From an uncultured virus (IMG/VR IMGVR_UViG_3300046474_000019) (lineage: Duplodnaviria > Heunggongvirae > Uroviricota > Caudoviricetes), in IMG/VR virus record IMGVR_UViG_3300046474_000019: a stretch of 36,004 nt of DNA; one strand, written 5' to 3'. Positions 2,097 to 19,907 of the stretch are shown here, piece after piece. The translations under genes and the position numbers were made by a program. Numbering within the stretch: position 1 is the first letter of the stretch; each line of letters begins with the position of its first letter. The notes under the pieces were generated by a model. The model saw only the letters and a list, made by a program, of their open reading frames with translations, had not been told where the DNA came from and searched no databases.

Positions 2097-2100
2097 ACGC

Positions 2101-2129: not shown

Positions 2130-2159
2130 ACTCACACACTAAACAACGGAGCTACAACG

Positions 2160-3220: not shown

Positions 3221-3458
3221 TATCTTCAAAGATAGGATAATAAAAGACCACAACTTCATGAAAAAGATCGATATTCTGAGGCTGGAGTTTGAAGAGTATT
3301 TTTCAGTGGAAGCTATAAAGGTGGGACATCCTATATCCTGCACTGGTGGTAGACATCCTGCCTTCCACAGATTCTTCAATAACTCAGGTAAGAATAAGTC
3401 GTCTACCCAGTTACTAGAAGCTGAACTTTTAAAGCATGGAGTGCCATCTTGGCCTTGA
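3213..3458 (+). CDS. Hypothetical phage protein
   Basis: ATG 3213 in the 3102..3458 ORF, coupled to previous stop. Confidence 0.55.
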   Translation: MSSIFKDRIIKDHNFMKKIDILRLEFEEYFSVEAIKVGHPISCTGGRHPAFHRFFNNSGKNKSSTQLLEAELLKHGVPSWP

Positions 3459-3483
3459 CTAAAAACTCCGTAGATGGTACAAT
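3455..3483 (+). promoter_or_regulatory. sigma70 promoter
   Basis: TTGACT-17-TACAAT with TG extension. Confidence 0.7.
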
Positions 3484-3521
3484 CAGTATAGACAAGGAGG
3501 TTTTCCACTAAAAGGAAGCCA

Positions 3522-3716
3522 ATGATGGCTGACACAACACCCGCTGCACTGGTGGCTTACTATACGAAAGAACAGGTCAGAATTCTTAGAGTCAAGCTCA
3601 CTGCATTCCGTGAATGCTTGAAGACAACAACAATCCCAAAGCGTAGAATGTGGCTTGAGGCAAGAATCGAAGAACTAACAACTGCTCTGTTTGATCGCAC
3701 TGGTATTCGCTATTAA
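3522..3716 (+). CDS. Hypothetical phage protein
   Basis: AAGGA RBS, followed by terminator. Confidence 0.7.
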   Translation: MMADTTPAALVAYYTKEQVRILRVKLTAFRECLKTTTIPKRRMWLEARIEELTTALFDRTGIRY

Positions 3717-3718
3717 TG

Positions 3719-3743
3719 AACCCGCTTCGGCGGGTTTCTTTTT
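3719..3743 (+). terminator. Rho-independent terminator
   Basis: AACCCGC-TTCG-GCGGGTT + T-tract. Confidence 0.85.
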
Positions 3744-3765
3744 GTCTGGGATTAAGTGAAAAGGG

Positions 3766-3793
3766 TTGACACGGCACCCCATTCCTGTAAAAT
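3766..3793 (+). promoter_or_regulatory. sigma70 promoter
   Basis: TTGACA-16-TAAAAT. Confidence 0.7.
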
Positions 3794-3817
3794 CGTTTTT
3801 ATTTACTAGGAGGTTGT

Positions 3818-4387
3818 GTGAAAACTGGAAGACCAAGGGGTTTGATTCATGGCGTAGGTATTAATGATGCGAGCTACGTGACAAATGGGAAGACGGTGTG
3901 TCCGTTCTACTCAAAGTGGCGTGATATGCTGGGAAGATGTTATTCAAAAACAACCTATAGAACTTACGAAGGTTGTACTGTTTGTGACGATTGGCGTCTC
4001 TTCTCAAAATTCAAAGCTTGGATGGAAGCTCAAGATTGGGAAGGGAAGGAGCTTGACAAAGACCTGCTTATACAAGGTAATAAAGTATATTCTCCAGATA
4101 CTTGTGTGTTCGTGAGTAAAGAGGTCTACACCTTCACAACTAAATGCCAAGCCTCTAGAGGTGAGTATCCTATTGGAGTATGCCTACATAAAGAGTCTGG
4201 TAAATTTGTTGCTCAGTGCCGTGTAGATGGTAAGAAGAAGCACCTTGGTATTTTCACAACAGTAGAACAAGCTCACAACGCATGGGTTAACAAGAAGAGG
4301 GAATTGGCGATAGAATTAGCATCAAGGCAGGAAGACTGTAAAATTTCTTCTGCTATTCTCAACATCAAATATGAGGAATGGTTATGA
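3818..4387 (+). CDS. HNH homing endonuclease with AP2 domain
   Basis: GVGINDA, WRDMLGRCY, ELDKDLL...YSPDTCVFV, KKHLGIF..EQAH.AW. Confidence 0.85.
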   Translation: MKTGRPRGLIHGVGINDASYVTNGKTVCPFYSKWRDMLGRCYSKTTYRTYEGCTVCDDWRLFSKFKAWMEAQDWEGKELDKDLLIQGNKVYSPDTCVFVSKEVYTFTTKCQASRGEYPIGVCLHKESGKFVAQCRVDGKKKHLGIFTTVEQAHNAWVNKKRELAIELASRQEDCKISSAILNIKYEEWL

Positions 4388-4566
4388 TTAACTACGAAGT
4401 TAAGGACGAGTATATTAAAGTCCGGTGGCACAAGAAAGAGCTTGGCCGTATTTACAATGAGGATATGGCTTGGCATTATCGCCCCCGAGGGTGTTGTGGG
4501 AAGATTCGGAGTGAAGAGTTTGCTTCTCTCACTGCACTCAAGCAACACATTGAAGGCACTGACTAA
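4378..4566 (+). CDS. Hypothetical phage protein
   Basis: 62 aa ORF coupled to previous gene, ends at terminator. Confidence 0.65.
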   Translation: MVMINYEVKDEYIKVRWHKKELGRIYNEDMAWHYRPRGCCGKIRSEEFASLTALKQHIEGTD

Positions 4567-4586
4567 CCCGCTTCGGCGGGTTTTCT
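4565..4586 (+). terminator. Rho-independent terminator (same hairpin as 3719)
   Basis: AACCCGCTTCGGCGGGTTTTCT. Confidence 0.8.
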
Positions 4587-4598
4587 AATGGAGGATGA

Positions 4599-5141
4599 AT
4601 GAGTAGATTTAACAATGGAGCTAGGGATTTTGATATGAACAGGTTAACACTTCATCCTTTCTACCCTATCTGGAATGCGATGGTACAACGTTGTACCAAC
4701 CCTAAATATAAGGGTTACGAAAACTATGGGGCAATCGGTATTACTTTGTGTGATGAGTGGATGCCGCCAAAAGAATCAGGATTCCTTACTTTCCTGAGGG
4801 ACATGGTGGACCCACACTTACTTCCCGGTGAGGATTACTTTCAGCCTTACTTTTCGCTTGGCAAAAGTTTGGACAGAAGATTTGGCCCGGCAGGGTATAA
4901 CCCAGAAAACTGCCGATGGGTAACGCCAGAAGTGCAGAACCTTAATAGACGGGGCGGAAGGTCTGGCAGGTTATACCCTCAAGGTGTGAAGTGGGACAAG
5001 AGGGCTAACAGGTTCTATGCATACTACATAGTCGAAGGGAAGACTGTGCCACTGGTAAGCACTGGTAACCTCTTTGAGGCTATCGCAAGGCGCCGTTCGT
5101 GGGAGTTGGCTAGATACAAAGAGCTTGGTGTTGAATCTTAA
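4599..5141 (+). CDS. HNH homing endonuclease with AP2-like C-terminus
   Basis: WNAMVQRC, NYGAIGITLCDEW, SLDR...GYNPENCRWVT...N.N, GVKWDKR. Confidence 0.85.
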   Translation: MSRFNNGARDFDMNRLTLHPFYPIWNAMVQRCTNPKYKGYENYGAIGITLCDEWMPPKESGFLTFLRDMVDPHLLPGEDYFQPYFSLGKSLDRRFGPAGYNPENCRWVTPEVQNLNRRGGRSGRLYPQGVKWDKRANRFYAYYIVEGKTVPLVSTGNLFEAIARRRSWELARYKELGVES

Positions 5142-5300
5142 AATTGAAATGCAAAATCCCCAGATCAAAATTTATGGAGAAACGGGTAAGTTTTTATGAA
5201 CAAAGTACTCGACAGATTTTTAGGGAGCCGGAGAAACGGATGGAAATTCATGGAAATTTTGAAATCCGGGTCGATTTTTACAGATCGGTACATTTTTCCG
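5142..5300. other. Non-coding DNA with roughly helically phased A/T tracts (likely curved)
   Basis: A/T tracts near 5153, 5167, 5180, 5191, 5202, 5216, 5234, 5244, 5254, 5274, 5292. Confidence 0.45.
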
Positions 5301-5375
5301 CGAGGGTGGGGATTCCGGTGGAGTGGCGTGCTACTCGAAAATGGTGTAGCACGTCTGTAGCCCGCTGGCTGAGAG

Positions 5376-5465
5376 GGAGAATCATTCTCATCTGGTGTTG
5401 AGAGCAGTTCTCATTTGAGATTGCTACCGAGAATCATTCACTTGTGTAAGTGGGAGGTATTCGCA
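5376..5465. promoter_or_regulatory. Array of Fur-box-like 7-1-7 inverted repeats
   Basis: GGAGAATCATTCTCA (5376), TGAGAGCAGTTCTCA (5399), CGAGAATCATTCACT (5428), TGGGAGGTATTCGCA (5451). Confidence 0.5.
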
Positions 5466-5565
5466 TTACTAGAATGACAGGCACCCTCCCTGTTTATCTC
5501 CGGGTTTACAACCCCGCCACATCATGGGAACAATTATAATCACTCAAGCAAGGAAGTACAAGGGG

Positions 5566-5593
5566 TTGACGAAATTAAATTCTGTGGTACAAT
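5566..5593 (+). promoter_or_regulatory. sigma70 promoter
   Basis: TTGACG-16-TACAAT with TG extension. Confidence 0.7.
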
Positions 5594-5623
5594 CCCTGAT
5601 TCACAATCAATTGAGGGTACAGA

Positions 5624-6076
5624 ATGCTAAATATGAGTGCAACACGTACAAAATGGCGAGCTAAGAAGTATCACGCCGCCGAACATGGAATAGACTTTAA
5701 CCTATCGTTTGAGGACTACGCAAGCCTTCTAGTTGAGGCTGGTATAACAGAAGCCGATGTAGGTCGTGGGGCTGAAAAGTATTGTTTAGGTCGCTACGGT
5801 GACGAAGGGCCATATGAGCTAGGAAATTGCAGGTTCATAACTAACCGTGAGAATGGTATAGAAGGCACGGATACAAGGAAACGGCGTGGTGATGGTATGC
5901 CGGGAGGTGAAAATTTTGTAGGTGAAAACCATTGGAATCATCAAGGTTTTGTGGTAACGCCTTGGGGAGAGTTTGAATCTCTGAGGAAAGCAGCAAAGGC
6001 CGTTGGCTCTCTATGGGGGCATAACAAGATTAAGAACCTTATCCATGAAGGCGCCGAAGGCTACTGCTATAGGTAG
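5624..6076 (+). CDS. HNH-like endonuclease with C-terminal NUMOD-like DNA-binding segment
   Basis: GIDFNLSFEDY, CLGRYGDEGPYELGNCRFITNREN, FESLRKAAKAVG. Confidence 0.7.
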   Translation: MLNMSATRTKWRAKKYHAAEHGIDFNLSFEDYASLLVEAGITEADVGRGAEKYCLGRYGDEGPYELGNCRFITNRENGIEGTDTRKRRGDGMPGGENFVGENHWNHQGFVVTPWGEFESLRKAAKAVGSLWGHNKIKNLIHEGAEGYCYR

Positions 6077-6110
6077 CTCAAAAGATTTTATCCGTTAGAA
6101 TAAAAAGGTG

Positions 6111-6138
6111 TTGACTCAAGGTCGAATAGTGATAAGAT
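6111..6138 (+). promoter_or_regulatory. sigma70 promoter
   Basis: TTGACT-16-TAAGAT followed by GGCCCACACAAAC leader. Confidence 0.65.
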
Positions 6139-6172
6139 GGCCCACACAAACAACCCAACTAGAGGAACTAAG

Positions 6173-6475
6173 ATGCAAGCTTTGAAGACTGTAAAGACTG
6201 ATGTTGTTAGCAAGCAAATTGCCGCACTGATTCACGCCAACGGCTCTAAGTTTTTCGGTGTTACATTCATTAAGAAGGACGGCACCGAACGCACACTAAA
6301 CGGTCATATCCGCAAGACTGGCAAAGGTGGCGTTAATACTACGGCTCACATTGAAAAGTATGTGACGATTGTCCTTAACAAGAAGGACGATAAAGGCCGG
6401 GAACAACTCCGCAATGTCAACATGGAAACTATCAAAGCGTTATCTATTGGTGGCCGTCGAATTAAATTCGATTAA
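6173..6475 (+). CDS. SH3/WYL-like beta-barrel early protein
   Basis: GAGGA RBS before ATG 6173; FFGVTFIKKDGTERTLNG motif. Confidence 0.6.
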   Translation: MQALKTVKTDVVSKQIAALIHANGSKFFGVTFIKKDGTERTLNGHIRKTGKGGVNTTAHIEKYVTIVLNKKDDKGREQLRNVNMETIKALSIGGRRIKFD

Positions 6476-6479
6476 ACGC

Positions 6480-6508
6480 TTTACATGGTAAGCCGTTAAC
6501 CGTAGAAT
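6480..6508 (+). promoter_or_regulatory. sigma70 promoter with inverted repeat around -10
   Basis: TTTACA-17-TAGAAT; GCCGTTA..TAACGGC. Confidence 0.65.
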
Positions 6509-6546
6509 AACGGCACAACTAAGAACGGTTTAAGGATAAGTAGTAA

Positions 6547-6690
6547 ATGGCACGTCCAGTCAAAGCATCTGATTTTGTAGCCTCCTACCAGTATGAACAA
6601 GCCAAGAAACAAGCTCGAAAGGGTGACATAGGGCGCCGTTCAGGCCGCCGGGGCACCCAAGCTTGGGGCATTTGGGCTGATAAAGAATAG
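6547..6690 (+). CDS. Small Arg/Lys-rich protein (47 aa, not in ORF track)
   Basis: AAGGA upstream; MARPVKASDFVASYQYEQAKKQARKGDIGRRSGRRGTQAWGIWADKE. Confidence 0.7.
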   Translation: MARPVKASDFVASYQYEQAKKQARKGDIGRRSGRRGTQAWGIWADKE

Positions 6691-6693
6691 GGC

Positions 6694-6722
6694 TTGACAG
6701 CCTGTCAATCGTTGTCTACACT
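6694..6722 (+). promoter_or_regulatory. sigma70 promoter with palindromic -35
   Basis: TTGACA-GCC-TGTCAA; TTGACA-17-TACACT. Confidence 0.6.
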
Positions 6723-6857
6723 CGGTTTTAGGAGATTGCAAAGTGTTGTTTTATGTATGGTTTGACTCGATTCATCATGCGGTACTGTGGGCGGACACTT
6801 GCGGTTATACTGTCAAGGTTGGCAGAATTGATGGCAAGTGGTACGTAGGGTTTTAAT

Positions 6858-7238
6858 ATGGCTGGCATACGACGGGCTCCACAACCCAAAGCACAGCTTA
6901 AACCTAAAGTCAAGGTGAAGCCACCACTCCACCAACGGATTCTAGGCAAGGGTGCTGTAGAGGCTGACACTATCGACGATCTTCGGATAGAGCTGGAACG
7001 CGCTCTAAGCCTCGATATGATCGAATATGACACCTATCTAGACTGCCATGAGGCTCTAGATATCCGTGAGGCTAGAGCAAAAACGGCCATGCTCAAGGCT
7101 ACAGGCCGTTACGTCAAGCCAGATAAAACGGTTGAAATCAAGGCACGGACGGTGCAAGCCAAGCCGTGGCCTAAATGGAAAGTCAAGCTAGTTTATATTG
7201 TTGTGGCCATAATTCTTTTTAAATTTCTTGGTAAATAG
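6858..7238 (+). CDS. Hypothetical protein with C-terminal transmembrane anchor
   Basis: 126 aa, basic N-terminus, LVYIVVAIILF tail. Confidence 0.7.
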   Translation: MAGIRRAPQPKAQLKPKVKVKPPLHQRILGKGAVEADTIDDLRIELERALSLDMIEYDTYLDCHEALDIREARAKTAMLKATGRYVKPDKTVEIKARTVQAKPWPKWKVKLVYIVVAIILFKFLGK

Positions 7239-7240
7239 TG

Positions 7241-7268
7241 TTGACGCTACATATCAGCACTGTACAAT
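7241..7268 (+). promoter_or_regulatory. sigma70 promoter
   Basis: TTGACG-16-TACAAT. Confidence 0.7.
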
Positions 7269-7314
7269 ACTCGACATTGAAAAGCACAAACCCTCTAAGT
7301 AGTAAGGAATTGCA

Positions 7315-8007
7315 GTGTTCTACGTTCTTAATCCAGTTTCCGGCAACACTAAAACCGGTCCTATGCCTGTCTCCACTTCTAACTCTACCACTTGCCCCGA
7401 TGCTTGCCCTATTAAGGCTAAAGGCTGCTATGCCAAGTATGGTCCTGTCGGTATGCATTGGCGTAAACTGGATAATGGCGAGTCTAAGAACGCTGTAGAA
7501 TGGCCTCAGTTTATCCGTCAAGTTAAAGCCCTTTCGAACAACACACTTTGGCGTCACAATCAAGCCGGTGATTTAAACGGTGATGCTGTAATGATTGACG
7601 GGCCTAAGTTGCGTGATTTGATTGTCGCCAATGGTCGTAAACGTGGCTTTACATATACGCATTATGACGTGCTGTCTGATACATTCGAAAGCCGACAAAA
7701 CGCTTTGTTAATTCAAGATGCAAACGTTAAAGGCTTGACAATTAATGTTAGTGGCAATGACGTTAATCATGCTGATAAGTTGAAAGCTTTAAATGTTGCC
7801 CCAGTTGTTGTAATTATGCCGCGTGATGCTGAGAAAGTATCTTATACTCCCGCTGGTAATAAGGTTGTGATTTGTCCAGCCGAGAACAACGACAAAGTTA
7901 ATTGTGTTAAGTGTGCCCTTTGTCAAGATGTAAAACGTGACTACATAATCGGCTTTCGCGCTCATGGTACAGCCGCAAAGTCTGTCGAATTGATTGCAAG
8001 GGGTTAA
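7315..8007 (+). CDS. Cys-rich putative Fe-S protein (GP88/radical-SAM-like phage family)
   Basis: NTKTG, CPDACP-x5-CYA, WRHNQAGD, YTH, CPAE..CVKCALC..IIGFRAHG. Confidence 0.6.
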   Translation: MFYVLNPVSGNTKTGPMPVSTSNSTTCPDACPIKAKGCYAKYGPVGMHWRKLDNGESKNAVEWPQFIRQVKALSNNTLWRHNQAGDLNGDAVMIDGPKLRDLIVANGRKRGFTYTHYDVLSDTFESRQNALLIQDANVKGLTINVSGNDVNHADKLKALNVAPVVVIMPRDAEKVSYTPAGNKVVICPAENNDKVNCVKCALCQDVKRDYIIGFRAHGTAAKSVELIARG

Positions 8008-8011
8008 TACT

Positions 8012-8353
8012 ATGAATTGTACTATCTGGAACGCGCTTAACCAATGCTCCACAACGGGTTATGAGGTAGAACTACGCTCCCTTAACCTAGATAATGGGTT
8101 CATAGTTAAGCTTTTTCGTGACCATAAAGGCTGGCACCGTGTGGCCTTGTTTGAGAGTGACGCGCCAGACAGCGGCCTGAGTGGTGTTATCATCCAGCCA
8201 GACGGCGAAGTGTATTATAAGCAGACAGCCACCTATGCGCAGGGCAACAACTACACACGCAAACTTCAGGCTATGTTAACAGTGTGGGGCATTGAATGGC
8301 ACCGTTCAGAACTGTTAACAGAATCCGGTGCTGCCTGTTATAAAGGGCTTTAA
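8012..8353 (+). CDS. Hypothetical early protein
   Basis: ATG 8012 after AGGGG, within 7994..8353 ORF. Confidence 0.65.
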   Translation: MNCTIWNALNQCSTTGYEVELRSLNLDNGFIVKLFRDHKGWHRVALFESDAPDSGLSGVIIQPDGEVYYKQTATYAQGNNYTRKLQAMLTVWGIEWHRSELLTESGAACYKGL

Positions 8354-8394
8354 AGTGTTCTGGAAAGTATACAGAAAAGGTGTGTTCAACCCTA

Positions 8395-8422
8395 TTGACA
8401 GGGTGTTCTACCCTGCTATAAT
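8395..8422 (+). promoter_or_regulatory. sigma70 promoter
   Basis: TTGACA-16-TATAAT; CAGGGT..ACCCTG inverted repeat. Confidence 0.8.
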
Positions 8423-8484
8423 GGACGCTCAAGATGTACACGCTATGCTTGAGGATGATTATGATTTTCCTGTCACAATTACCC

Positions 8485-8513
8485 TTGACGAATGCGATTA
8501 ATTGACCTAGAAT
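8485..8513 (+). promoter_or_regulatory. sigma70 promoter
   Basis: TTGACG-17-TAGAAT. Confidence 0.65.
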
Positions 8514-8547
8514 CACCATGTAACTAACCCACAGTGAGTACAGGCAA

Positions 8548-8880
8548 ATGGCTACCATCGTTATCAAAGGCGCTTCAATCGAAAAGAAACGTGAAATCCT
8601 TGACTCTAATAAGGGCCAAATGTTCGCCGTGACGTGGCAGAAAAAGGACGGCACTAGCACACATCGCGTGCTTAAGCAATGGATGAATAAAGCCCTTGCC
8701 AGCGGTACTAATGAAGTGGTACAGGCCAATCCAGCGGCACACAACCCGGACAACTACACAGCAGCCGACCCGGACAAGATCGCAAAGGGCAATCCCTATC
8801 CTTGGGTAAACGTCACACTGTCGAAAATGTCAAGCTGCAAGGTTGGCGGTGACGAATACATTTTTGAAGATGATAAGTAG
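8548..8880 (+). CDS. SH3/WYL-like early protein, paralog of 6173..6475
   Basis: MFAVTWQKKDGTSTHR ... WVNVTLSKMSSCKVGG. Confidence 0.6.
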   Translation: MATIVIKGASIEKKREILDSNKGQMFAVTWQKKDGTSTHRVLKQWMNKALASGTNEVVQANPAAHNPDNYTAADPDKIAKGNPYPWVNVTLSKMSSCKVGGDEYIFEDDK

Positions 8881-8938
8881 CCTGAATAAACCGTCTAGGG
8901 GCGCTGATTTAATTAGAGTTTTTCTAGTGTTTTGCTAG

Positions 8939-8966
8939 TTGACATGCCCCTAACATCCTGTAGACT
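8939..8966 (+). promoter_or_regulatory. sigma70 promoter
   Basis: TTGACA-16-TAGACT. Confidence 0.65.
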
Positions 8967-9029
8967 ACGCATCACCGGGAAGGAATAAGCCAGAAAGGCA
9001 GCCACCGGCAACCATAGGAGTAGGACAGA

Positions 9030-9332
9030 TTGGGCAGTATGAATAAGGTTGTTTTGCTGTCGTTAGGAGCTGTAAAGACTTTCCGTGGCTATGACGTGAA
9101 GCTGGGGGTTGTACAGGTGTCAGACGGGGAGTTTGTCGAGCATCTAGATAGCACGTTTGCAGAAGTGGCACTCTGCAATCATAACGTAAAGCCGGGGAGC
9201 GCCTTGCAAGTGGTGGCCCCGTTCTGGTTTCAAACTCTTAAGAATGAATATCAAGAAGAGTTGCAAAGCTCGCTACGATCGCAAGTGATACAAGGTAATG
9301 ATGTTGATATAGATTTTCATTACAACATGTAA
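9030..9332 (+). CDS. Hypothetical early protein
   Basis: ORF between promoter and terminator; start may be ATG 9039. Confidence 0.6.
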   Translation: MGSMNKVVLLSLGAVKTFRGYDVKLGVVQVSDGEFVEHLDSTFAEVALCNHNVKPGSALQVVAPFWFQTLKNEYQEELQSSLRSQVIQGNDVDIDFHYNM

Positions 9333-9347
9333 GCTACACGCATGAGG

Positions 9348-9372
9348 AAAGCCCCGACAGGCGGGGCTTTTT
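9348..9372 (+). terminator. Rho-independent terminator
   Basis: AAAGCCCCG-ACAGG-CGGGGCTTTTT. Confidence 0.85.
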
Positions 9373-9401
9373 CATACCCACAAAATAAATTGAAAATTTC
9401 C

Positions 9402-9429
9402 TTGACATGGTGAACCAGCCTGCTAATCT
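9402..9429 (+). promoter_or_regulatory. sigma70 promoter of DGQHR gene
   Basis: TTGACA-16-TAATCT with A/T-rich upstream element. Confidence 0.65.
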
Positions 9430-9472
9430 CCTAATCAAGCAAGGGGAATACAGAACACCCCAGCTTGAAAGA

Positions 9473-9488
9473 TGTTCCACGTGGAACG
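9473..9488. promoter_or_regulatory. parS: parS-type palindrome (copy 1), in leader of DGQHR gene
   Basis: TGTTCCACGTGGAACG; 15/16 match to Pseudomonas parS TGTTCCACGTGGAACA. Confidence 0.75.
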
Positions 9489-9512
9489 TCTCAACGCTCT
9501 AGGAGAAATGCC

Positions 9513-10970
9513 ATGTTCATGCCAAATGAATCGCTTCCTACTCCACTCACTTCCATCGATAACCTGCTGAAAGAAGCTGACTCTCAAGTCAGACCGGAAA
9601 AGGTGTTCATTGGTCACAATCTGGGGCATCGTACCTTTATTGCCTTGATCCCAATGAAAGACTTCTACGCCATGAGTAAGGTAGCCAACGAACGTCAACC
9701 GGACGGCTCGCCAGCTACACAACGCCCACTCAATGAGGCACACGCTACAGGGTTGGCAAAATACATCCTTCGCGGTATGATCGCCGCTGCAATCGAATAC
9801 CGCCGCAACTTCAATAAGCCAGAATCGCTGGCATTGCACGAACTACAGCGTGTAATGGGGCCACAAACCTACATGAGCTTGCAGCCTATCGTGTGCAACC
9901 TTCGCACCGTTGCCCCCGGTGGAGCTGGGATTGAAGGCAAGCGGATGGAAGCGGACGGCGAAACGGCCTGCTTTAAAGTGTTCCTCGGTCAACGTGACAT
10001 GCTGTATGTGATCGATGGCCAGCACCGTCGTTATGCCATGGATTTGGTTTTCGAATTCCTGACTGAAATCAGGTTGAACCGTAAGTATCCACGTAAGCCT
10101 AAACTGTTTGAAGGTAACTTCAAGGAGCCAATCCCTACCGAAGTGCTAGCGGCATGGGACGAATGCGATGAAGTGGCAAGGGGCTTCAGCAAGATCGCTG
10201 TAGAGATTCACCTAGGGCTTGGCGTTCGGGAAGAGCAACAACTGTTCCACGACCTGAACAACCTTGCCAAGAAGGTGGAGCGCTCGCTCGCTCTGAAGTT
10301 CGACAGCGCCAACCCGGTCAACCAGTTCATACAGAACGAGCTGTTACCGCATATCCTAGATTGGGACGACGTAACGGACGGTGACCAGTCCAACTGGAGC
10401 AAGGATACAGGCCGCTGGACATTCCGCGATCTGGCAGCGACTAACGCTATCCTGTTTCTGAACAAAACCAGCATTGCCAGTGCTACGCCTGCCGATGTAG
10501 AAGAAAAATATGCTACAGCTTGCAGGGCATGGGGCGCTATCGCTAACGTTCCGGGGTTTGGCAAGCCGGGGGCAAAAGCTTATACGGTGCTGGCACAGCC
10601 TGTAGTCGTCAAAGCTGTCGCAAAACTGGTGTACGATCTGGGGTTTGGTCGTCGTCGTGATGCTACAGCCGGTGAAGACCTTGAAAGGCTTCTGCAAGGC
10701 TTGTCACAAGTCAACTTCAGCCACACCAACCCTGTATGGCGGTTTTATGAACTGACTGAACAGGACCGTATCAAGCAAAAGCTTAACGGCTTGCGTGACT
10801 ATCTGCCTGATGGTGGTGACACTAACCGGAATATCGGAACGTTCGATAGCCAGAACAAATGGATGAAATTTGGCACCCGCCATAACGACATTTACCCAAT
10901 CATTGGTGACATGATTCGCTGGATGTTGAAACTCCCAAGCCGTACCGCTGAAAAGCCAGAAGCGGCGTAA
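9513..10970 (+). CDS. DGQHR-domain protein (DndB-like, ParB/Srx-fold superfamily)
   Basis: AGGAG RBS before ATG 9513; TQRPLNEAHA..LAKYI, YVIDGQHRRYAM, EEQQLFHDLN motifs of the DndB/DGQHR family; 485 aa. Confidence 0.85.
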   Translation: MFMPNESLPTPLTSIDNLLKEADSQVRPEKVFIGHNLGHRTFIALIPMKDFYAMSKVANERQPDGSPATQRPLNEAHATGLAKYILRGMIAAAIEYRRNFNKPESLALHELQRVMGPQTYMSLQPIVCNLRTVAPGGAGIEGKRMEADGETACFKVFLGQRDMLYVIDGQHRRYAMDLVFEFLTEIRLNRKYPRKPKLFEGNFKEPIPTEVLAAWDECDEVARGFSKIAVEIHLGLGVREEQQLFHDLNNLAKKVERSLALKFDSANPVNQFIQNELLPHILDWDDVTDGDQSNWSKDTGRWTFRDLAATNAILFLNKTSIASATPADVEEKYATACRAWGAIANVPGFGKPGAKAYTVLAQPVVVKAVAKLVYDLGFGRRRDATAGEDLERLLQGLSQVNFSHTNPVWRFYELTEQDRIKQKLNGLRDYLPDGGDTNRNIGTFDSQNKWMKFGTRHNDIYPIIGDMIRWMLKLPSRTAEKPEAA

Positions 10971-10982
10971 CGCAAACCCCTT

Positions 10983-11008
10983 GCCCCGCCTAACCAGCGG
11001 GGCTTTTC
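10983..11008 (+). terminator. Rho-independent terminator
   Basis: GCCCCGC-CTAACCA-GCGGGGC-TTTT. Confidence 0.85.
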
Positions 11009-11037
11009 TCCGTCACACATTAGGCCAGGGTGATGCT

Positions 11038-11133
11038 ATGACAAGCCTTGAAAAAGCAGTGTTGGCTATCTTTGGTACGCTGTTCGTTGTGTGGGTGATA
11101 TCTATCCTCATGCTATTTTCAACATTACGTTAA
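11038..11133 (+). CDS. Small single-pass membrane peptide (31 aa)
   Basis: MTSLEKAVLAIFGTLFVVWVISILMLFSTLR, AGGGTG upstream. Confidence 0.5.
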   Translation: MTSLEKAVLAIFGTLFVVWVISILMLFSTLR

Positions 11134-11141
11134 AATGTGTG

Positions 11142-11169
11142 TTGACATGGATGTCATACCCTGTAGAAT
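11142..11169 (+). promoter_or_regulatory. sigma70 promoter with palindrome over -35
   Basis: TTGACA-16-TAGAAT; TGACAT-GG-ATGTCA. Confidence 0.7.
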
Positions 11170-11217
11170 CCACCACAAGATGTGAACAAGCCTCACAAAT
11201 CAAGAAGGAACGCTACC

Positions 11218-11538
11218 ATGGAGCAAATAATAACCGCTTTGGCCCAACTGGAAACAATCCTCAACTCTGACCCATCGGTTGAAGGGCTGCCATACAACTA
11301 TAAAATCGAATTGCAAATGGGTAAAGTATACGCCCGTATTGTTCGCCGTGAAGTGTGGCACCACAACCCAACCGAGCCCGTGAATGGCTCTGTGTATGGT
11401 TTCATCAAGCTAGAAGACCTGACCTTGTGGAAAGCAGCAGGATGGAAGGCGTCAGCCAAGAACAAGGCACGCGGCGTTCTTTCTGACCTGACAGACGCTG
11501 AAAAGGTTCTGCCTATGTGGCGTTACAGTATCAGCTAA
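11218..11538 (+). CDS. Conserved phage early hypothetical protein
   Basis: AAGGA RBS; KVYARIV...SVYGFI...KAAGWKASAKNKARG. Confidence 0.7.
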   Translation: MEQIITALAQLETILNSDPSVEGLPYNYKIELQMGKVYARIVRREVWHHNPTEPVNGSVYGFIKLEDLTLWKAAGWKASAKNKARGVLSDLTDAEKVLPMWRYSIS

Positions 11539-11557
11539 AACAATTTTATCGTATGGC

Positions 11558-11586
11558 TTGACGTCCTCAGGCCATTCTATTAAGAT
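11558..11586 (+). promoter_or_regulatory. sigma70 promoter
   Basis: TTGACG-17-TAAGAT. Confidence 0.7.
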
Positions 11587-11624
11587 TGTTTACATCGAAA
11601 CCCAACCACTAGGAATACGTCACC

Positions 11625-11996
11625 ATGAACACGAACTATAAGACTGAAGCTGTAGCAGAACTGGCCCAATCAATCAAGGCCGCTGGTTTCCGTGTGTTCA
11701 TTGCAAAGAGTGGCACTTACGGTTTCTACACTGATGAGGCTGGTAGCCGAATCGTCTCTTTCCAATTTGATTTGGGCGGCTTCAAGTTTTCCGGCAACTA
11801 TAAAACAGATCAACCACATAGCACCGGCAATGGTTGGGGTTTTGGTGAAGGTGTTGATATTTCCGCTAGCGGCTTGCGTAGTATGTTCGAATCTACACCA
11901 CCGCAATGGGCAGTGCGTGGTGCTAACTGGGAACTCACCACACTAGAACAGCACCTAAAGACCTATCAGGCATCGTCGCAATACGTCGAAGTCTAA
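11625..11996 (+). CDS. Hypothetical early protein
   Basis: 123 aa, AGGA RBS, own promoter. Confidence 0.75.
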   Translation: MNTNYKTEAVAELAQSIKAAGFRVFIAKSGTYGFYTDEAGSRIVSFQFDLGGFKFSGNYKTDQPHSTGNGWGFGEGVDISASGLRSMFESTPPQWAVRGANWELTTLEQHLKTYQASSQYVEV

Positions 11997-12004
11997 TAAA
12001 ACGC

Positions 12005-12032
12005 TTGCATGGGCTGTTCACTCTGATAGAAT
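12005..12032 (+). promoter_or_regulatory. sigma70 promoter
   Basis: TTGCAT-16-TAGAAT; imperfect GGGCTGTTC..GAATGGCCC. Confidence 0.6.
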
Positions 12033-12066
12033 GGCCCTACACAATCAACGCTCTAGGACGTTCGCC

Positions 12067-12351
12067 ATGATCACCATCACAAGCCTTACCCATCCTATAA
12101 TGATTGCAAAGATTCGTCACGGCCTACGCTGTGCTGCCTCGGGTAATGGTCATTTGCTTGGCGGACATGATAACCGTGTGTACATCCAGAATCGCAAAGG
12201 CCACAACATCATGCGAATCGACTACAAAGGCAATGGCCAGTTTGTGGCGTATGGTGGGGCAGACTGGGGCTTAACTGAAGTGACTGAGGTTGTCAAGGCT
12301 GCATTGCGTCGTGCCACAGTTCGAACAATCCTTAATAGGAGGTTGACATGA
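12067..12351 (+). CDS. Hypothetical early protein
   Basis: AGGA RBS before ATG 12067. Confidence 0.7.
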   Translation: MITITSLTHPIMIAKIRHGLRCAASGNGHLLGGHDNRVYIQNRKGHNIMRIDYKGNGQFVAYGGADWGLTEVTEVVKAALRRATVRTILNRRLT

Positions 12352-12455
12352 ACGCTAAACATTTGAAAATCTATAACACTGTACTGTCTGTAGCCTTTTT
12401 GGTTATCGCTTCAGCCGTTGTCTATCAGTTGGGTATTGCATGGCTATCACAGTGA
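12348..12455 (+). CDS. Small membrane peptide (35 aa)
   Basis: AGGAGG RBS, ATGA overlap; MNAKHLKIYNTVLSVAFLVIASAVVYQLGIAWLSQ. Confidence 0.7.
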   Translation: MNAKHLKIYNTVLSVAFLVIASAVVYQLGIAWLSQ

Positions 12456-12508
12456 CGCTAGACACACCGTAATGGCTTTTCAACGTGTGATAAATCGTTA
12501 AACAAGTG

Positions 12509-12538
12509 TTGTATAGAGCATTCGAAGCATAGTAGAAT
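12509..12538 (+). promoter_or_regulatory. sigma70 promoter with inverted repeat overlapping -10
   Basis: TTGTAT-18-TAGAAT; AGAGCATTC..GAATGCTCT. Confidence 0.55.
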
Positions 12539-12568
12539 GCTCTCACACCAACCAATGAGGCTAGGCAA

Positions 12569-12811
12569 ATGAGAAAAATACAAATCTTCACTAACGCAAA
12601 TCTTGAATCCGTCAAAGTGGCAAACATCTTTCAAACCACACCACAGCCGGGTATGGAAGCAATCCACGTGCCATCCTTCGAAGTGTCGACTACATCCGGT
12701 GGCGTGGACATTGGTTGGAAATTTGAAAGCTTCGCATTGCTTGAGGATGCCCAACAATTCGCATTACAGTTCATCATGCCTAAAGGCATGCTTTGCAAAA
12801 TAGTGGCCTAA
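12569..12811 (+). CDS. Hypothetical early protein
   Basis: 80 aa ORF after promoter. Confidence 0.7.
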   Translation: MRKIQIFTNANLESVKVANIFQTTPQPGMEAIHVPSFEVSTTSGGVDIGWKFESFALLEDAQQFALQFIMPKGMLCKIVA

Positions 12812-12824
12812 CCGAATAAACCAC

Positions 12825-12853
12825 TTGCGGGGTGTTGATTGCAGATATACAAT
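12825..12853 (+). promoter_or_regulatory. sigma70 promoter with inverted repeat around -10
   Basis: TTGCGG-17-TACAAT; TGATTGCA..TGCAATCA. Confidence 0.6.
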
Positions 12854-12886
12854 GCAATCACACCCACACACAACCGAGTGACCATC

Positions 12887-13186
12887 ATGACCAAATCCAC
12901 TTCCATTCGTTGCACTTGCTGTCAAGCTGAGCTTACCGCACCTCAGTTTTACAATGGCAAGCCTTATGGCTGGACTTGCATCAAGAAGGTTGACCCAGCT
13001 TTCAAACGCACTAAAACCGTTTATGTGGCTTGTGAAGCTTTCAAGATTGTTCAAGCTGGTAGTCGTTGTGTCGTTAACGTCAAGCTTGCTGGTAAGTGGT
13101 CACAAGTGGTGGTGTATGGTGATATCGAAACACGCACTACTTCGACCTACATGCAAGACGGTATCCTGTACGTGGTAGCTAAATAA
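12887..13186 (+). CDS. Zn-finger-like early protein
   Basis: CTCCQAELT...YGWTCIKK. Confidence 0.65.
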   Translation: MTKSTSIRCTCCQAELTAPQFYNGKPYGWTCIKKVDPAFKRTKTVYVACEAFKIVQAGSRCVVNVKLAGKWSQVVVYGDIETRTTSTYMQDGILYVVAK

Positions 13187-13260
13187 TGCTACCGCTAAAA
13201 GCGCTCTACCTGTATTCCGCTGTCATTGTTGCCCTCGGCCTTGCTTGGAGTTTTTCCTAA
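13186..13260 (+). CDS. Small membrane peptide (24 aa)
   Basis: TAATG coupling at both ends; MLPLKALYLYSAVIVALGLAWSFS. Confidence 0.55.
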   Translation: MLPLKALYLYSAVIVALGLAWSFS

Positions 13261-13544
13261 TGTACGCACTAATCCTTACCCTTTGCTCACTCGCCAACTG
13301 TAATGGCTATGTGATTGCCACTGATGATGCTTGGCAGCAACAAGCCCCATGCAATGAGACACTGTATGTTGAAAGCGACCTATTCGGAAAGGCTTTCACC
13401 TTCGACAATACAGGCAAGCTCACAGCCTTAAATAGCCAATTAGCTCAAGGCTATCTAGATCGTTTCAATGTCCGTGAGGAACTCACAACCCTGACAGATT
13501 ACGACTTCACGTGTGAGAAAGTGGCAGACAACGACATTCCATAA
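13260..13544 (+). CDS. Hypothetical exported protein
   Basis: MYALILTLCSLANC signal-like N-terminus; Cys pairs. Confidence 0.65.
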   Translation: MYALILTLCSLANCNGYVIATDDAWQQQAPCNETLYVESDLFGKAFTFDNTGKLTALNSQLAQGYLDRFNVREELTTLTDYDFTCEKVADNDIP

Positions 13545-13546
13545 CA

Positions 13547-13562
13547 CGTTCCACGTGGAACA
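13547..13562. promoter_or_regulatory. parS: parS-type palindrome (copy 2, inverted)
   Basis: CGTTCCACGTGGAACA = reverse complement of copy 1. Confidence 0.75.
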
Positions 13563-13565
13563 ATT

Positions 13566-13586
13566 GCCCGCCTTGAGCGGGCTTTC
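13566..13586 (+). terminator. Terminator ending the early + strand region
   Basis: GCCCGC-CTTGA-GCGGGC-TTTC. Confidence 0.65.
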
Positions 13587-13595
13587 GCACTGGCT

Positions 13596-13637
13596 AAAGC
13601 GTAGCTTTGAAGGTTGTATACCCGAAAGCTACGCTTT
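13596..13637. repeat. Perfect 13-bp inverted repeat
   Basis: AAAGCGTAGCTTT ... AAAGCTACGCTTT. Confidence 0.8.
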
Positions 13638-14200
13638 CAGTGTTTTGCACGGTATCAAATGCGTTAGCATTGGTTGTTTTTGTGTAATAAAACATACAAA
13701 TAACCTACAATAAACATATATGAAACCTCAAGCCTTCGGCTGTCAGCGTATCACTCAAACCTTCGGTTTAAAGGGCTCTCAAACGGCCTGTAGGCCACGT
13801 GTTACAAGGCTTAGAGCTTTGTACGACCGTTAGCATACGCTAACAAGAAAACCCCTCAGAATCGTTCTAAACCCCTTTCCTGTACACTGGTAGCGTGTGT
13901 GAGTGGGCGATAGCCTACGTTCTACTAAGCGAAGCGCTCTCACCCTGACAAATATGTCAAGCATAATCTTCAAATATATTCCTATCCAATGCGTAGCATT
14001 GATTAATACATTCAATGGGCGCACCCTCACAGGTTGGCATGATCCTAGCCTAGCATAATGCATGCCAGAATAAACACTCTGAGCTACGCTCACATCTGTA
14101 CGCACATGTCAAATATCCCTTGTGTGTTAACCAATGTTGACAGTAGTCTACGACGTGTGAGTCATTGTGTGAATGTGTTTCCTTGTGTGGTGATGCTCTA

Positions 14201-14302
14201 TATATAGTGCGTCGGAATCAAAATGGCTTGCCATTGAATGATAATCCCCTTTGCCGTGTGTCCATCCTGTTAGTGTGTCCTCTATATAGTGCGTCGGAAT
14301 CA
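14201..14302. repeat. 20-bp direct repeat (two copies)
   Basis: TATATAGTGCGTCGGAATCA at 14201-14220 and 14283-14302. Confidence 0.9.
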
Positions 14303-14310
14303 CATTGTAC

Positions 14311-14326
14311 TGTTCCACGTGGAACG
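14311..14326. promoter_or_regulatory. parS: parS-type palindrome (copy 3)
   Basis: TGTTCCACGTGGAACG. Confidence 0.75.
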
Positions 14327-14484
14327 AATTCACCCCACAGGGTAGACCCATGGGCGAGCCACCCCATAGAGTGTATGCATCATTGAGGGTACATTGATAG
14401 GTTATTTCCATTTTACGTGGCGCCAGCCTTCGGGCCTTTGTGCTTGGTTAAGTGCCTATCGTGAAGACACCAATTCCTGTAGAC

Positions 14485-14519
14485 AAAAAGAAACCCTCAC
14501 AAGGAGGGCTCTTATTTTT
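14485..14519 (-). terminator. Terminator (possibly bidirectional) ending the - strand operon
   Basis: AAAAAGAAA-CCCTC-ACAAG-GAGGG-CTCTTATTTTT. Confidence 0.6.
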
Positions 14520-14536
14520 GGGCGGGAGTTTAAACT

Positions 14537-14824
14537 TTACAAGGAAAGAAGCTTCTCGGCTGTAGCGGCGGGGATGGAGTACTTCGCAATAAGGGCTACC
14601 ATTTTCAGACGGGTGTACCCTTTATAATAGTCAGCGGCAGCCATTGGGCTGGTAAACTTTCCAAGATAATGTTGCTTGTTGTCTACGTCCGTGGTCTTTA
14701 CAAACCAATGCTTACCTGTGTAGCCAACACCCTGCTTAGAATTGTAACACTTTAACAGTTGATTAACGGCATTTGCCACACCATCCACACCAGCCGTTGG
14801 AGCTTGAACAGGGTTCATTCGCAT
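14537..14824 (-). CDS. Stand-alone AP2-like DNA-binding domain protein
   Basis: GVGYTGKHWFV...KQHYLGKFTSPMAAADYY. Confidence 0.55.
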   Translation of the reverse strand: MRMNPVQAPTAGVDGVANAVNQLLKCYNSKQGVGYTGKHWFVKTTDVDNKQHYLGKFTSPMAAADYYKGYTRLKMVALIAKYSIPAATAEKLLSL

Positions 14825-15165: not shown

Positions 15166-15362
15166 TCACACCCACAGTGCGTCGGGTGCCCTTGAGGCAT
15201 TGTACAGCCTTTAGAAGGCTTACGACATGCGTATGGAATCGCAAACTCTACTACAACTTCAATATCCATATTTGGATAGAGGTCAAGGATATGGTCTACA
15301 GCCTCTTTAGCTTCCTTCAGACCACAGCCAGCCCTTTCCCGTACACTCTTGATTGCCATCAC
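15159..15362 (-). CDS. Ribosomal protein bL12 (L7/L12) C-terminal-like protein
   Basis: AIKSVRERAGCGLKEAKEAVD resembles bL12 IKxVRxxTGLGLKEAKxxVE. Confidence 0.6.
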   Translation of the reverse strand: MMAIKSVRERAGCGLKEAKEAVDHILDLYPNMDIEVVVEFAIPYACRKPSKGCTMPQGHPTHCGCEW

Positions 15363-15622
15363 TTTCCAGATACATAGGGTGTTGGATGTGGTATCATGTG
15401 CTTCTCACTCTCGATGGCGAGTACTAAGGAGGTGAGTAACTGAAGAGCTTTCTCTTTATTGGCGTGCTGACTCCGCTCACTGTCACAGCTTACACCAATA
15501 CCAGAAGGTATATGATGCACGGTGATACCACTGGTGGTAAGTCCAACGGTCATTCCGCCAGCTCCGTGTCCAGACTGAGGGAGGTAGCTGGTGATTCGTA
15601 GATCATGTGGGTTAAGCATCAT
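15359..15622 (-). CDS. Class I release factor domain-3-like protein with GGQ->GGM
   Basis: GAGGMTVGLTTSGITVHHIPSGIGVSCDSERSQHANKEKAL vs RF [40 protein letters not shown]; GGAG RBS. Confidence 0.8.
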   Translation of the reverse strand: MMLNPHDLRITSYLPQSGHGAGGMTVGLTTSGITVHHIPSGIGVSCDSERSQHANKEKALQLLTSLVLAIESEKHMIPHPTPYVSGK

Positions 15623-15791
15623 CGTCTCCGTAGTAGAGGATTTCTTCAAACTCATTGCCAAAGTTTTCCAGCACTGCCTCATTGAACCAGCGACTAGCAC
15701 CAGCAGGACAGAGCTTTCCGCACTCAGCAAGGGCAGCATAGAAGTTATTGTACTGGGTTTTCTCTTTCAGTGCAAGCTTATGTTCTGTCAT
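15612..15791 (-). CDS. Hypothetical phage protein
   Basis: ATG 15791 (MTEHKL...), coupled to neighbours. Confidence 0.6.
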   Translation of the reverse strand: MTEHKLALKEKTQYNNFYAALAECGKLCPAGASRWFNEAVLENFGNEFEEILYYGDDDA

Positions 15792-17599: not shown

Positions 17600-18175
17600 T
17601 TACGCGAAAGCTTTTAGCACTTGGTTCGGGTTAGCAGCAGCCGATTCACCCATTGGTTGGAAGCCCCAACCGTCTGCTGTACGTTGCAGAGTACCAACAT
17701 GCAGAGCAGTATGGTTGACAAACTGTTGCAACTTGTACTCGGCCAGCAGCTTGTTGTCCTGATCGTATAGCTTGAAGCTACCACCGCTGATCATACTCAG
17801 GTCTTGCTGGCGATCTACCGCATCGTGCAAGAAGACGAAGTGTTCAACCTTGTCAATGTGAGCAGGAATCTTGGTGATGTCTACGAGAATTTCTTCGTCG
17901 TCTTGGCCTGCAACGTCAGCACCATTACGGTTATCACGTGGCAGAACAACAGCACCGTTGTAGCAGTCTTTGTTGTTGAAGAAGCAAACGTTCTTCATAT
18001 CACCTTTGATGCTACCGTTGCTGGTCAGGAACATGAAGATGTCAAGGTCAAATTCATGGCCTTTGCTTGCCATCGGGTGCAGTTCCCAGTTCAGAGCGCC
18101 ACGCAGGCGGGTCAGCGAAGGGGAAACTTTGGTCAGGTCCAACATCAGGGTATCTTTGCTCAAGTTAAGCTCCAT
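17600..18175 (-). CDS. terD: TerD-family stress protein
   Basis: FDLDIF, VCFFNN, DNRNG...DDEEILVDITKIPAHI, W.FQPMGE. Confidence 0.9.
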   Translation of the reverse strand: MELNLSKDTLMLDLTKVSPSLTRLRGALNWELHPMASKGHEFDLDIFMFLTSNGSIKGDMKNVCFFNNKDCYNGAVVLPRDNRNGADVAGQDDEEILVDITKIPAHIDKVEHFVFLHDAVDRQQDLSMISGGSFKLYDQDNKLLAEYKLQQFVNHTALHVGTLQRTADGWGFQPMGESAAANPNQVLKAFA

Positions 18176-18236: not shown

Positions 18237-18917
18237 TCAAGCAGTCTTTGCGATGAACTGTTTGTTTACGAAGGCGAACGCTACAACAGTCAGGCCACCA
18301 ACAACTTTAGCCAACAGGTGGTTCACTTCGCCAACATGAGTGATGAAGAATGGATCAGAGATCAACATTTCAGCACCAACTACACCCAACATTGCAGCAC
18401 CGATCCAGATGATGATCTTGAAACGATCCATCAAGCCCGACAGGTATTTCGCACCGTAGACAATGATTGGGATGCTCAGAACGATACCAGCGATTGCGTA
18501 CAGAGTCGAATGAGCGCCAGTGTTAGAAGCAGCACCAGCTACAGCCATTACGTTGTCCAGCGAGAGCATGAAGTCCGCTACGATGATAGTCCAGACAGCG
18601 CCCCAAATCGAGTCTTTCTGTGCAACTTCGTGTGGCTCATCGTGACCAGTCAACAACGAGTAGCCGATGTAAACCAAGTACAGACCAGCAACCAGCTTCA
18701 GGAACGGCACGCCCAAGAGGAACGTTGCAAACACCAGCAGGACAGCTCGCAGTGCAATGGCACCAGCAGTACCCAGCAGGATTGCCTTACCTCGTACACT
18801 TACCGCCAACGAGGCACATGCCAGAGCGATTACGATTGCGTTGTCAAGGCCGAGAAGCAAGTCGATCATCATGATCTTGAAGATTGCAACCCAGTCCAAC
18901 ATTGCGAAAAATTCCAT
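18237..18917 (-). CDS. terC: TerC-family integral membrane protein
   Basis: IDLLLGLDNAIVIALA, IIVADFMLSLDNVMAVAGAA; multiple TM helices. Confidence 0.9.
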   Translation of the reverse strand: MEFFAMLDWVAIFKIMMIDLLLGLDNAIVIALACASLAVSVRGKAILLGTAGAIALRAVLLVFATFLLGVPFLKLVAGLYLVYIGYSLLTGHDEPHEVAQKDSIWGAVWTIIVADFMLSLDNVMAVAGAASNTGAHSTLYAIAGIVLSIPIIVYGAKYLSGLMDRFKIIIWIGAAMLGVVGAEMLISDPFFITHVGEVNHLLAKVVGGLTVVAFAFVNKQFIAKTA

Positions 18918-19256: not shown

Positions 19257-19907
19257 TTATTTGGTTGCGAAAGCCTTGAACTCTTCGTTCAACAACAGCT
19301 CATAGAAGCGGTTCTGGTCTACAGCCTTCGGATTCGGGATGTACAGCACTTCAACAGTGTCGTACTTGGCCCCGATCATGTCCAGATAACGCTTATCAAC
19401 GCCGTTGCCGATTGCCACGATCTGTACGAAGGTGTTCTCCAGCGAATCCAGTTGAGCTTCGAAGTCACGCTGGTCGTTGTTCTGACCATCAGTGATGAAG
19501 CCGATGTAAGTTGGGGTTGCTACCTTAGCAGGTCCAAAACCGAACAGCCCACGTTTGGTTGCACTACCTTTCAAACCCTTGATGGCATCTGCGAAGTTGG
19601 TGCCGCCACCAGCGGTGATACGGTGTTTACGGACGTACAGGCCGTGGTCGTCAATAGTTGCATCTGGAGTGCGGTCAAAACTGGTGTTGAAGAAACCAAT
19701 CTCCATCTTACCGTCATCGTCAAACTTCATGGCAGCAGCCAAGAATAGGTCGATAGTGTCTTGTACCCAACCGCAGCGGAACTCGTCGTCCATGCTACCA
19801 GATTTGTCTACAGCCAGCTTAACGGCCATAGTGATTGGTGTGAAAATCTGAGCCTTTTCGAGATTCAGTTCCAGCGATTTGGTCAGGTCTAACATTGGCA
19901 TACCCAT
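19257..19907 (-). CDS. vWA-domain protein (ter-associated)
   Basis: MIDAS DKSGSM, GGTNF, FITDG, FVQIVAIG. Confidence 0.9.
   Translation of the reverse strand: MGMPMLDLTKSLELNLEKAQIFTPITMAVKLAVDKSGSMDDEFRCGWVQDTIDLFLAAAMKFDDDGKMEIGFFNTSFDRTPDATIDDHGLYVRKHRITAGGGTNFADAIKGLKGSATKRGLFGFGPAKVATPTYIGFITDGQNNDQRDFEAQLDSLENTFVQIVAIGNGVDKRYLDMIGAKYDTVEVLYIPNPKAVDQNRFYELLLNEEFKAFATK

Follow-up and report, generated by a model that had tools for sequence, protein, structure and literature searches.

Chromosomal-type parS sites at the early-gene end of an Otagovirus-like Pseudomonas phage: candidate loading sites for host ParB

Host-type parS sites on a virulent phage have been established in print only for the phages of the phi29 family. 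phi29 carries five parS sites, and the host protein Spo0J is involved in the movement of its genome into the prespore, according to the summary of Meijer et al. 2005 given in PMC2731898. A literature search of limited coverage did not turn up any description of natural host-type parS for lytic phages of Pseudomonas or other Gram-negative bacteria. Here, we consider a 36,004-nucleotide stretch of DNA from an uncultured virus of a rhizosphere metagenome (IMG/VR record IMGVR_UViG_3300046474_000019; the whole stretch is referred to below as the window), in which the 16-mer TGTTCCACGTGGAACG, closely matching the chromosomal parS of Pseudomonas, is present in three exact copies at 9473–9488 (+ strand), 13547–13562 (− strand), and 14311–14326 (+ strand). 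On balance, and with considerable doubt, we favor the view that all three copies function as the host chromosomal parS, which would load host ParB and so hand the unintegrated phage genome to the ParA/ParB positioning of the host.

The parS sites of Pseudomonas are well described. In P. aeruginosa, parS2 and parS3 have the sequence TGTTCCACGTGGAACA, and parS1 and parS4 end in C, differing only at this last base; according to PMC4368675, the affinity of ParB for parS1 and parS4 is only slightly lower, and they are sufficient for segregation. The identical 16-mer is listed for P. putida in a table of PMC7022226. The window 16-mers share 15 of 16 bases with TGTTCCACGTGGAACA, and the sole mismatch falls at the outer base position, as in the functional parS1 and parS4 of P. 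aeruginosa. All three sites agree at 15/16 positions with the 16-bp palindrome TGTTNCACGTGNAACA and have a perfect 14-bp core, GTTCCACGTGGAAC, the P. aeruginosa and P. putida versions being those available in print. ParB ChIP motifs rank GTTCCAC as the best half-site and GTTTCAC as the second. In related phages (see below), nearly all of the site variants change the outer base or replace GTTCCAC with GTTTCAC, many copies are the perfect 16-mer, and conservation extends to its flanking T and A. Chromosomal sites with the same variants were found in 208 of 301 sampled genomes (1–6 in each, usually 1–3), and the reversed control gave almost none; this tally is a class-level sample that includes one unpublished genome (G042), without which it is 207 of 300.

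A chance origin of the window sites is difficult to maintain. The motif scan finds the 14-bp palindrome exactly three times, at 9474, 13548, and 14312. With up to three mismatches, the 16-mer gives six strand-hits, that is, three places, against 0.35 expected, and none of 100 shuffles reaches six; with up to two mismatches, the palindrome is found at three places against 0.10 expected, and none of 100 shuffles reaches three. The original prediction, made from the sequence without database searches, had described three identical palindromic copies at 9473, 13547 (inverted), and 14311 within 5 kb, all of them intergenic and 15/16 identical to the Pseudomonas chromosomal parS. The scan recovers the same copies with no shuffle equal to them, all three are non-coding, and the printed P. 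aeruginosa and P. putida sequences agree, so that by sequence the sites are of the host parS type, far above chance. It had further been stated that no copies were seen elsewhere in the window, which holds, as no fourth match to the 16-mer exists at up to three mismatches; the statement covers these 36 kb of a phage of ~98 kb. The assignment of the sites to the early region needs a correction: they do lie among the last early genes, but the + strand genes (1–13544) and the − strand genes (14537–36004) converge here on a gene-free stretch, making this a genome-end region rather than simply an early one.

The three copies differ in their surroundings. Site 1 (9473–9488) is located in the leader of a DndB-like gene, 24 nt upstream of its ATG at 9513 and downstream of a promoter-like element (9402–9429). 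The first base of site 2 (13547–13562), which bears the same 16-mer on the − strand, lies 2 nt past the stop codon (13542–13544) that ends the final + strand gene; a homologue of the terminal repeat of related phages begins ~365 nt further on. Directly after it follows a terminator-like hairpin on the + strand (13566–13586; GCCCGC-CTTGA-GCGGGC, then TTTCG), which was read by eye and is not listed by a simple scan. Site 3 (14311–14326) is found in the gene-free stretch (13545–14536; 990 nt), inside the terminal-repeat homologue.

Judging by its matches, the window belongs to a virulent, Otagovirus-like myophage with a genome of ~98 kb. A 97,907-bp contig from a rhizosphere metagenome run shows full identity to it over the compared positions 9200–14800 and probably represents its source. 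It matches Pseudomonas myophages of ~96–107 kb around the genus Otagovirus, among them UAVern, Pyxpy01/02, ventosus, REC, Kremar, and SYP, and the hosts of cultured relatives are P. syringae, P. putida, P. fluorescens, and P. plecoglossicida. According to the published account of phiPsa374, this relative is virulent, no lysogeny having been detected, and has a 526-bp direct terminal repeat determined with PhageTerm. In the genome records of REC, SYP, phiPsa374, and phiPsa347, an identical repeat stands at both ends, with a length of 548, 351, 526, and 522 bp, respectively. On alignment, position 1 of the REC and phiPsa374 repeats falls at window position 13927/13928 and the end of the phiPsa374 repeat (526–528) at ~14451; because the repeat boundaries map there, 13927–14450 is the probable direct terminal repeat of the window phage, with site 3 inside it, an assignment made by homology in an assembly that is permuted across the repeat. 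A weak hint in the same direction comes from sequencing depth: a 242-nt unitig of run X3 over 14113–14336 has a depth of 4982 against 2039 and 1872 beside it (~2.5-fold), where only assembled contigs were used and an adjoining 21-nt indel could equally break the graph. The homologue of site 3 is found at 410 in the 548-bp repeat of REC and at 390 in the 526-bp repeat of phiPsa374. Owing to its place in the probable direct terminal repeat, site 3 would be present at both ends; virion DNA should therefore carry four sites, three in the terminal 5 kb on one side and a single one ~0.4 kb from the opposite end.

The terminal repeat contains another repeated element of 23–28 nt, CTCTATATAGTGCGTCGGAATCA, in two copies 82 nt apart on the + strand (14198–14225 and 14280–14307), the second of which ends 4 nt before site 3. 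The same element immediately precedes the homologous parS in phiPsa374, Ep020, and PPSC2, and it may serve as a promoter, as part of an origin, or in packaging. Relatives seen in runs X2 and X4 have a 21-nt insertion at window position 14112 with a parS-like word whose arms are split by two extra bases.

The motif recurs across the group, and its position is partly conserved, as the original prediction had proposed to check. Twenty-five whole related records were scanned with up to one mismatch in the 14-mer, with the reversed motif as a control and with REC1, which bears the DndB-like gene, left out. Sites are present in 19 of the 25 records, and the reversed control gives none in all 25. The site-bearing records comprise 14 of 17 with the DndB-like gene, four of five Otagoviruses without it, and XD2 (four sites); both Pakpunaviruses (0/2), as well as Psxphi15, Kremar, VCM, and UNO-G1W1, have no site at this threshold. 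Amme-3 and KoPa-4 have three sites each, and in phiPsa374 the one in the terminal repeat is the sole copy. Where the DndB-like gene is present (17 records), 40 of the 42 unique sites fall between ~0.6 kb upstream of this gene and the terminal repeat; the sites cluster in the last 5–8 kb of the early genes, and 14 of 17 annotation-checked sites are non-coding, often 1–5 nt past a stop codon. Two parS copies lie within plausible small coding genes, at L006 9954 (ventosus 41410) and L008 8830 (SYP 6223). The site in the terminal repeat is conserved in position in phiPsa374, phiPsa347, REC, M5.1, COT4, and L156, and the flanks of site 3 are conserved in L156 and COT4. XD2 (PQ288046.1), a P. aeruginosa phage absent from the matches to the DndB-like gene, has its sites at 17314, 28553, 54780, and 55392, spread over 38 kb and not clustered at an end. 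An exact scan of IMG/VR for the 14-mer gave at least 120 stretches, and the 80 listed with contig names are nearly all single sites on unrelated contigs; by a rough estimate that considers the size of the collection, these matches do not clearly exceed chance, and they were not used as support.

The other two sites turn over between close relatives. Site 1 is at the same place in 6 of 14 aligned relatives and missing in 8 of 14, though the surrounding promoter is conserved; in L149, the DndB-like protein is 100% identical, yet site 1 is absent. The close relative L156 has lost site 2 together with the adjacent hairpin by deletion and retains sites 1 and 3. Thus, sites are gained or lost as short indels between near-identical phages. 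A relative of ~97.5 kb assembled in runs X2–X4 aligns over all three sites while the intervening DNA is replaced. Among the differences listed for it, there is none over 9463–9535 at site 1, and a 2-nt deletion occurs just before the core of site 2 (of seven substitutions over 13246–14800, some are listed); at site 3, the 224-nt piece from run X3 shows no difference.

No partition proteins of the phage itself have been found. A Pfam scan detects neither ParB nor ParA among the 56 open reading frames (ORFs) of the window, as had been expected from the sequence, and PF02195 (ParB_N), PF17762 (HTH_ParB), and PF13614 (ParA-type AAA_31) each match in none of five complete relatives, the named control genomes being positive. 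A self-encoded ParABS cassette is therefore absent from the 56 window ORFs and the five complete relatives. In having multiple host-type parS sites, no ParB gene among those scanned, and a virulent lifestyle (the last as given in the description of phiPsa374), the window phage resembles phi29.

Host ParB meeting this DNA should load on it, because the sites are perfect or near-perfect parS; this is the best-supported step of the proposed scheme. In a Pseudomonas cell, host ParB dimers would bind the sites, close as CTP-bound clamps, and spread. A partition-type complex would then be built on the last ~5 kb of the early genes and, as site 3 is in the terminal repeat, also at ~0.1–0.4 kb from both ends of the linear genome. 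The least certain step is that the complex would pass the unintegrated phage genome to host ParA/ParB positioning, which would position the genome and secure its inheritance during infections that stall under starvation or the stringent response. Such a scheme would be a Gram-negative counterpart of the use of Spo0J by phi29. Placing and inheritance of stalled genomes by ParABS are favored over other uses because parAB plus one parS stabilizes an unstable plasmid in Pseudomonas (PMC4368675), because phi29 exploits Spo0J, and because Amme-3, a relative with three sites, injects its DNA but often fails to lyse (p)ppGpp-proficient wild-type P. putida, or lyses it with much delay. With regard to the other roles that the original prediction had offered, namely SMC recruitment, nuclease shielding, disguise against Wadjet/Mks, and ParB titration, the sequence favors anti-defence no more than the others.

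Several points weigh against the ParB-loading scheme. The sites are dispensable for growth, since six of 25 relatives have none, and turnover between near-identical phages, though compatible with an accessory role, would equally fit weak selection. The printed parS sequences, against which the sites appear host-type, are those of P. aeruginosa and P. putida and not of P. syringae, and this metagenomic phage may infect yet another species. ParB clamps slide off free DNA ends, and loading at 0.1–0.4 kb from the end of linear DNA may therefore be short-lived. Finally, a stable carrier state is not reported for the genus, and the description of phiPsa374 gives lysogeny as not detected.

The main rival, doubtful in our view but deserving attention, accepts that host ParB binds and makes it a borrowed repressor or roadblock, which would damp the DndB-like gene at site 1 and, at site 3, control transcription or replication that starts in the terminal repeat. 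The position of site 1 between a conserved promoter and the ribosome-binding site agrees with this. The promoter is a sigma-70-like element, TTGACA-16 nt-TAATCT (9402–9429, + strand), which a simple promoter scan does not list since its −10 hexamer matches 3/6, but all 14 aligned sequences have its TTGAC and CTA.TCT unchanged. Moreover, the same conserved TATATA element lies ~4–16 nt upstream of site 3 and of the homologous sites of phiPsa374, Ep020, and PPSC2. In P. aeruginosa, parS-bound ParB represses adjacent genes, and a mild excess silences the neighbourhood (PMC7022226), while parS plasmids are lost in E. coli under ParB excess (PMC4368675). However, many sites stand 1–5 nt past stop codons and not at promoters, site 1 is missing from near-identical phages, and the TATATA element is itself only a candidate promoter.

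A second reading, which we regard as rather unlikely, starts from the terminal repeat. The conserved parS there would place a ParB loading site at each end of the injected genome, and ParB complexes bridge and condense DNA; the complexes at both ends might therefore pair or cap the ends, promoting repeat–repeat recombination into a circle or concatemer or hiding the ends. This would be a host-factor-dependent first step of infection in terminal-repeat phages, and the DndB-like protein with a ParB-type fold encoded beside a site may tune such an end complex.

This gene (9513–10970, + strand) encodes a protein of 485 aa with a ParB/Srx-fold N-domain and a helical C-domain and adjoins site 1. It is assigned by Pfam PF14072 (E 1.2e-29; 103.9 bits against a curated cut-off of 29.1) and is an orphan with its own promoter and terminator; no other Dnd-family match was obtained among the 56 window ORFs, and hence no dndBCDE phosphorothioation operon is recognized there. 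In the structural model (pLDDT 82.7), residues ~40–256 match SspE (Z 7.7), PadC (7.5), DndB (6.5), and KorB (6.2). A sequence search against solved structures gave chance-level rows only, and Foldseek returned no match for the model at E ≤ 0.001. A complex prediction for P. putida ParB with the DndB-like protein scored 0.00 in two runs without controls, which speaks neither for nor against an interaction.

With such a fold next to a site, the sites could be operators of a phage protein, most obviously of the DndB-like one, and their likeness to parS would be mimicry or a sign of shared reader ancestry; we find this distinctly improbable. The fold of the N-domain is in its favor, as is the fact that in the window and in the 14 site-bearing records of the 17 with the gene, thus in every complete genome that has both, one site lies within 60 nt of the start or stop of the gene. 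This adjacency is a lead for a functional link. On the other side, sites and gene are found apart in both directions. The DndB-less phiPsa374, phiPsa347, and PHB09 have well-matched sites and PPSC2 has a mutated homologue, which together make up the four of five records mentioned above, and XD2 has four sites. Conversely, L149, with its identical protein, has no site in the 10.3 kb examined; Psxphi15, Kremar, and VCM have the gene and no site; and on two betaproteobacterial contigs, no site occurs within ~6 kb of a gene with 67% identity. In the full-length comparison, residues 260–485 gave no match to a ParB DNA-binding domain, though one may be present, as this part was not folded or searched alone. 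The DndB-like protein is thus probably not the reader of the sites.

A comparably low probability is given to a ParB sponge, in which replicating phage DNA would pull ParB off the chromosome and disturb segregation, nucleoid organisation, or ParB-dependent expression. Three sites in 4.9 kb are the typical number of a whole chromosome, and P. aeruginosa ParB occupies hundreds of half-sites and affects many genes. However, placement in the terminal repeat would be unneeded for titration, and isolated half-sites are not enriched: the window has 15 copies of GTTCCAC, six of them within the three sites, against 5.65 expected, and two of GTTTCAC against 6.75. As Pseudomonas can live without parB and mutants lacking it show mild defects (PMC4368675, PMC7022226), the gain from such a sponge within one lytic cycle is unclear. 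The weakest reading, that the palindromes are RNA hairpins (terminators or stabilizers) or neutral leftovers with a coincidental likeness to parS, can draw on the many copies that abut stop codons and on the terminator-like hairpin after site 2 but is very improbable, given that one-mismatch variants occur in both orientations to transcription, even in that which disrupts RNA pairing, which argues for a constraint at the DNA rather than the RNA level, that one site is in the gene-free terminal repeat, that the reversed control gives 0/25 against 19/25 genomes with sites, and that the flanking T and A are kept as well.

The remainder of the window contains several other recognizable genes, all on the − strand where a strand is given. 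A tellurite-resistance-type block comprises TerD (17600–18175), TerC (18237–18917), a vWA-TerF-like gene (19257–19907), and TelA (19930–21030). A gene of the nicotinamide/nicotinate phosphoribosyltransferase family (23927–25702) and a ribose-phosphate pyrophosphokinase-like gene (26970–27857) have a macro-domain gene (23278–23850) near them; the phosphoribosyltransferase and pyrophosphokinase-like pair resembles a phage pathway for NAD+ reconstitution, which acts against defences that deplete NAD. A 126-aa protein with an RF-1 domain (15359–15739, − strand) is annotated in relatives as a peptide chain release factor. The sigma-54 −24/−12 consensus has seven matches in the window against 3.19 expected, and six of 100 shuffles reach seven, so it is not significantly enriched.

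The case concerns a genus of crop-biocontrol phages, phiPsa374 and its relatives, and five phages of P. putida KT2440, which bear the centromere word of the host at their genome ends. Since parB of the host can be deleted, it is testable whether the phage gains from the host segregation machinery, whether stalled infections behave as partitioned episomes, and whether ParB occupies the ends of phage DNA. The answer would be relevant to the persistence of phages in biocontrol use.

Among the known systems, P1 parABS and N15 sopABC likewise place centromere-like sites on an extrachromosomal element. In these cassettes, ParA and ParB are self-encoded and the site sequences are private ones, whereas no ParA or ParB genes were found among the window ORFs or in the five complete relatives, and the sites of the window phage are the host's own word. 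KorB of plasmid RK2 is a CTP clamp with a ParB fold that acts as a repressor at short promoter-near palindromes, and it is a fold neighbour of the DndB-like N-domain; unlike the DndB-like protein, in which no such motif was recognized, KorB reads its own operator via a ParB-type helix-turn-helix, and the phage sites occur without the DndB-like gene. The likeness to the chromosomal parS/ParB-CTP complex of Pseudomonas (parS1–4 of P. aeruginosa; parS of P. putida) is closer: the same 16-bp word, the same tolerated variants, and clustering within a few kb are found in both, but the phage sites are not near oriC, and no parAB was found among the genes scanned.

The nearest parallel is with phi29 and Nf, virulent Bacillus phages without ParB that carry several copies of the host chromosomal parS, of which phi29 is described as exploiting the Spo0J of its host. 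The use made of the sites would differ, as phi29 employs them, by that account, for trapping its genome in spores. Pseudomonas does not sporulate, and such trapping is therefore excluded as a role here. The genome ends are also organized differently: those of phi29 are protein-primed, whereas in the window phage one site is placed in the short, probable direct terminal repeat and the remaining ones are no more than ~5 kb from one end. The use of the sites is reported as experimentally supported for phi29, and the Pseudomonas group is known in this respect from sequence. What this group adds to the phi29 precedent is a Gram-negative, non-sporulating host, a site in a short terminal repeat with genus-wide conservation, and cultured, tractable phage–host pairs.

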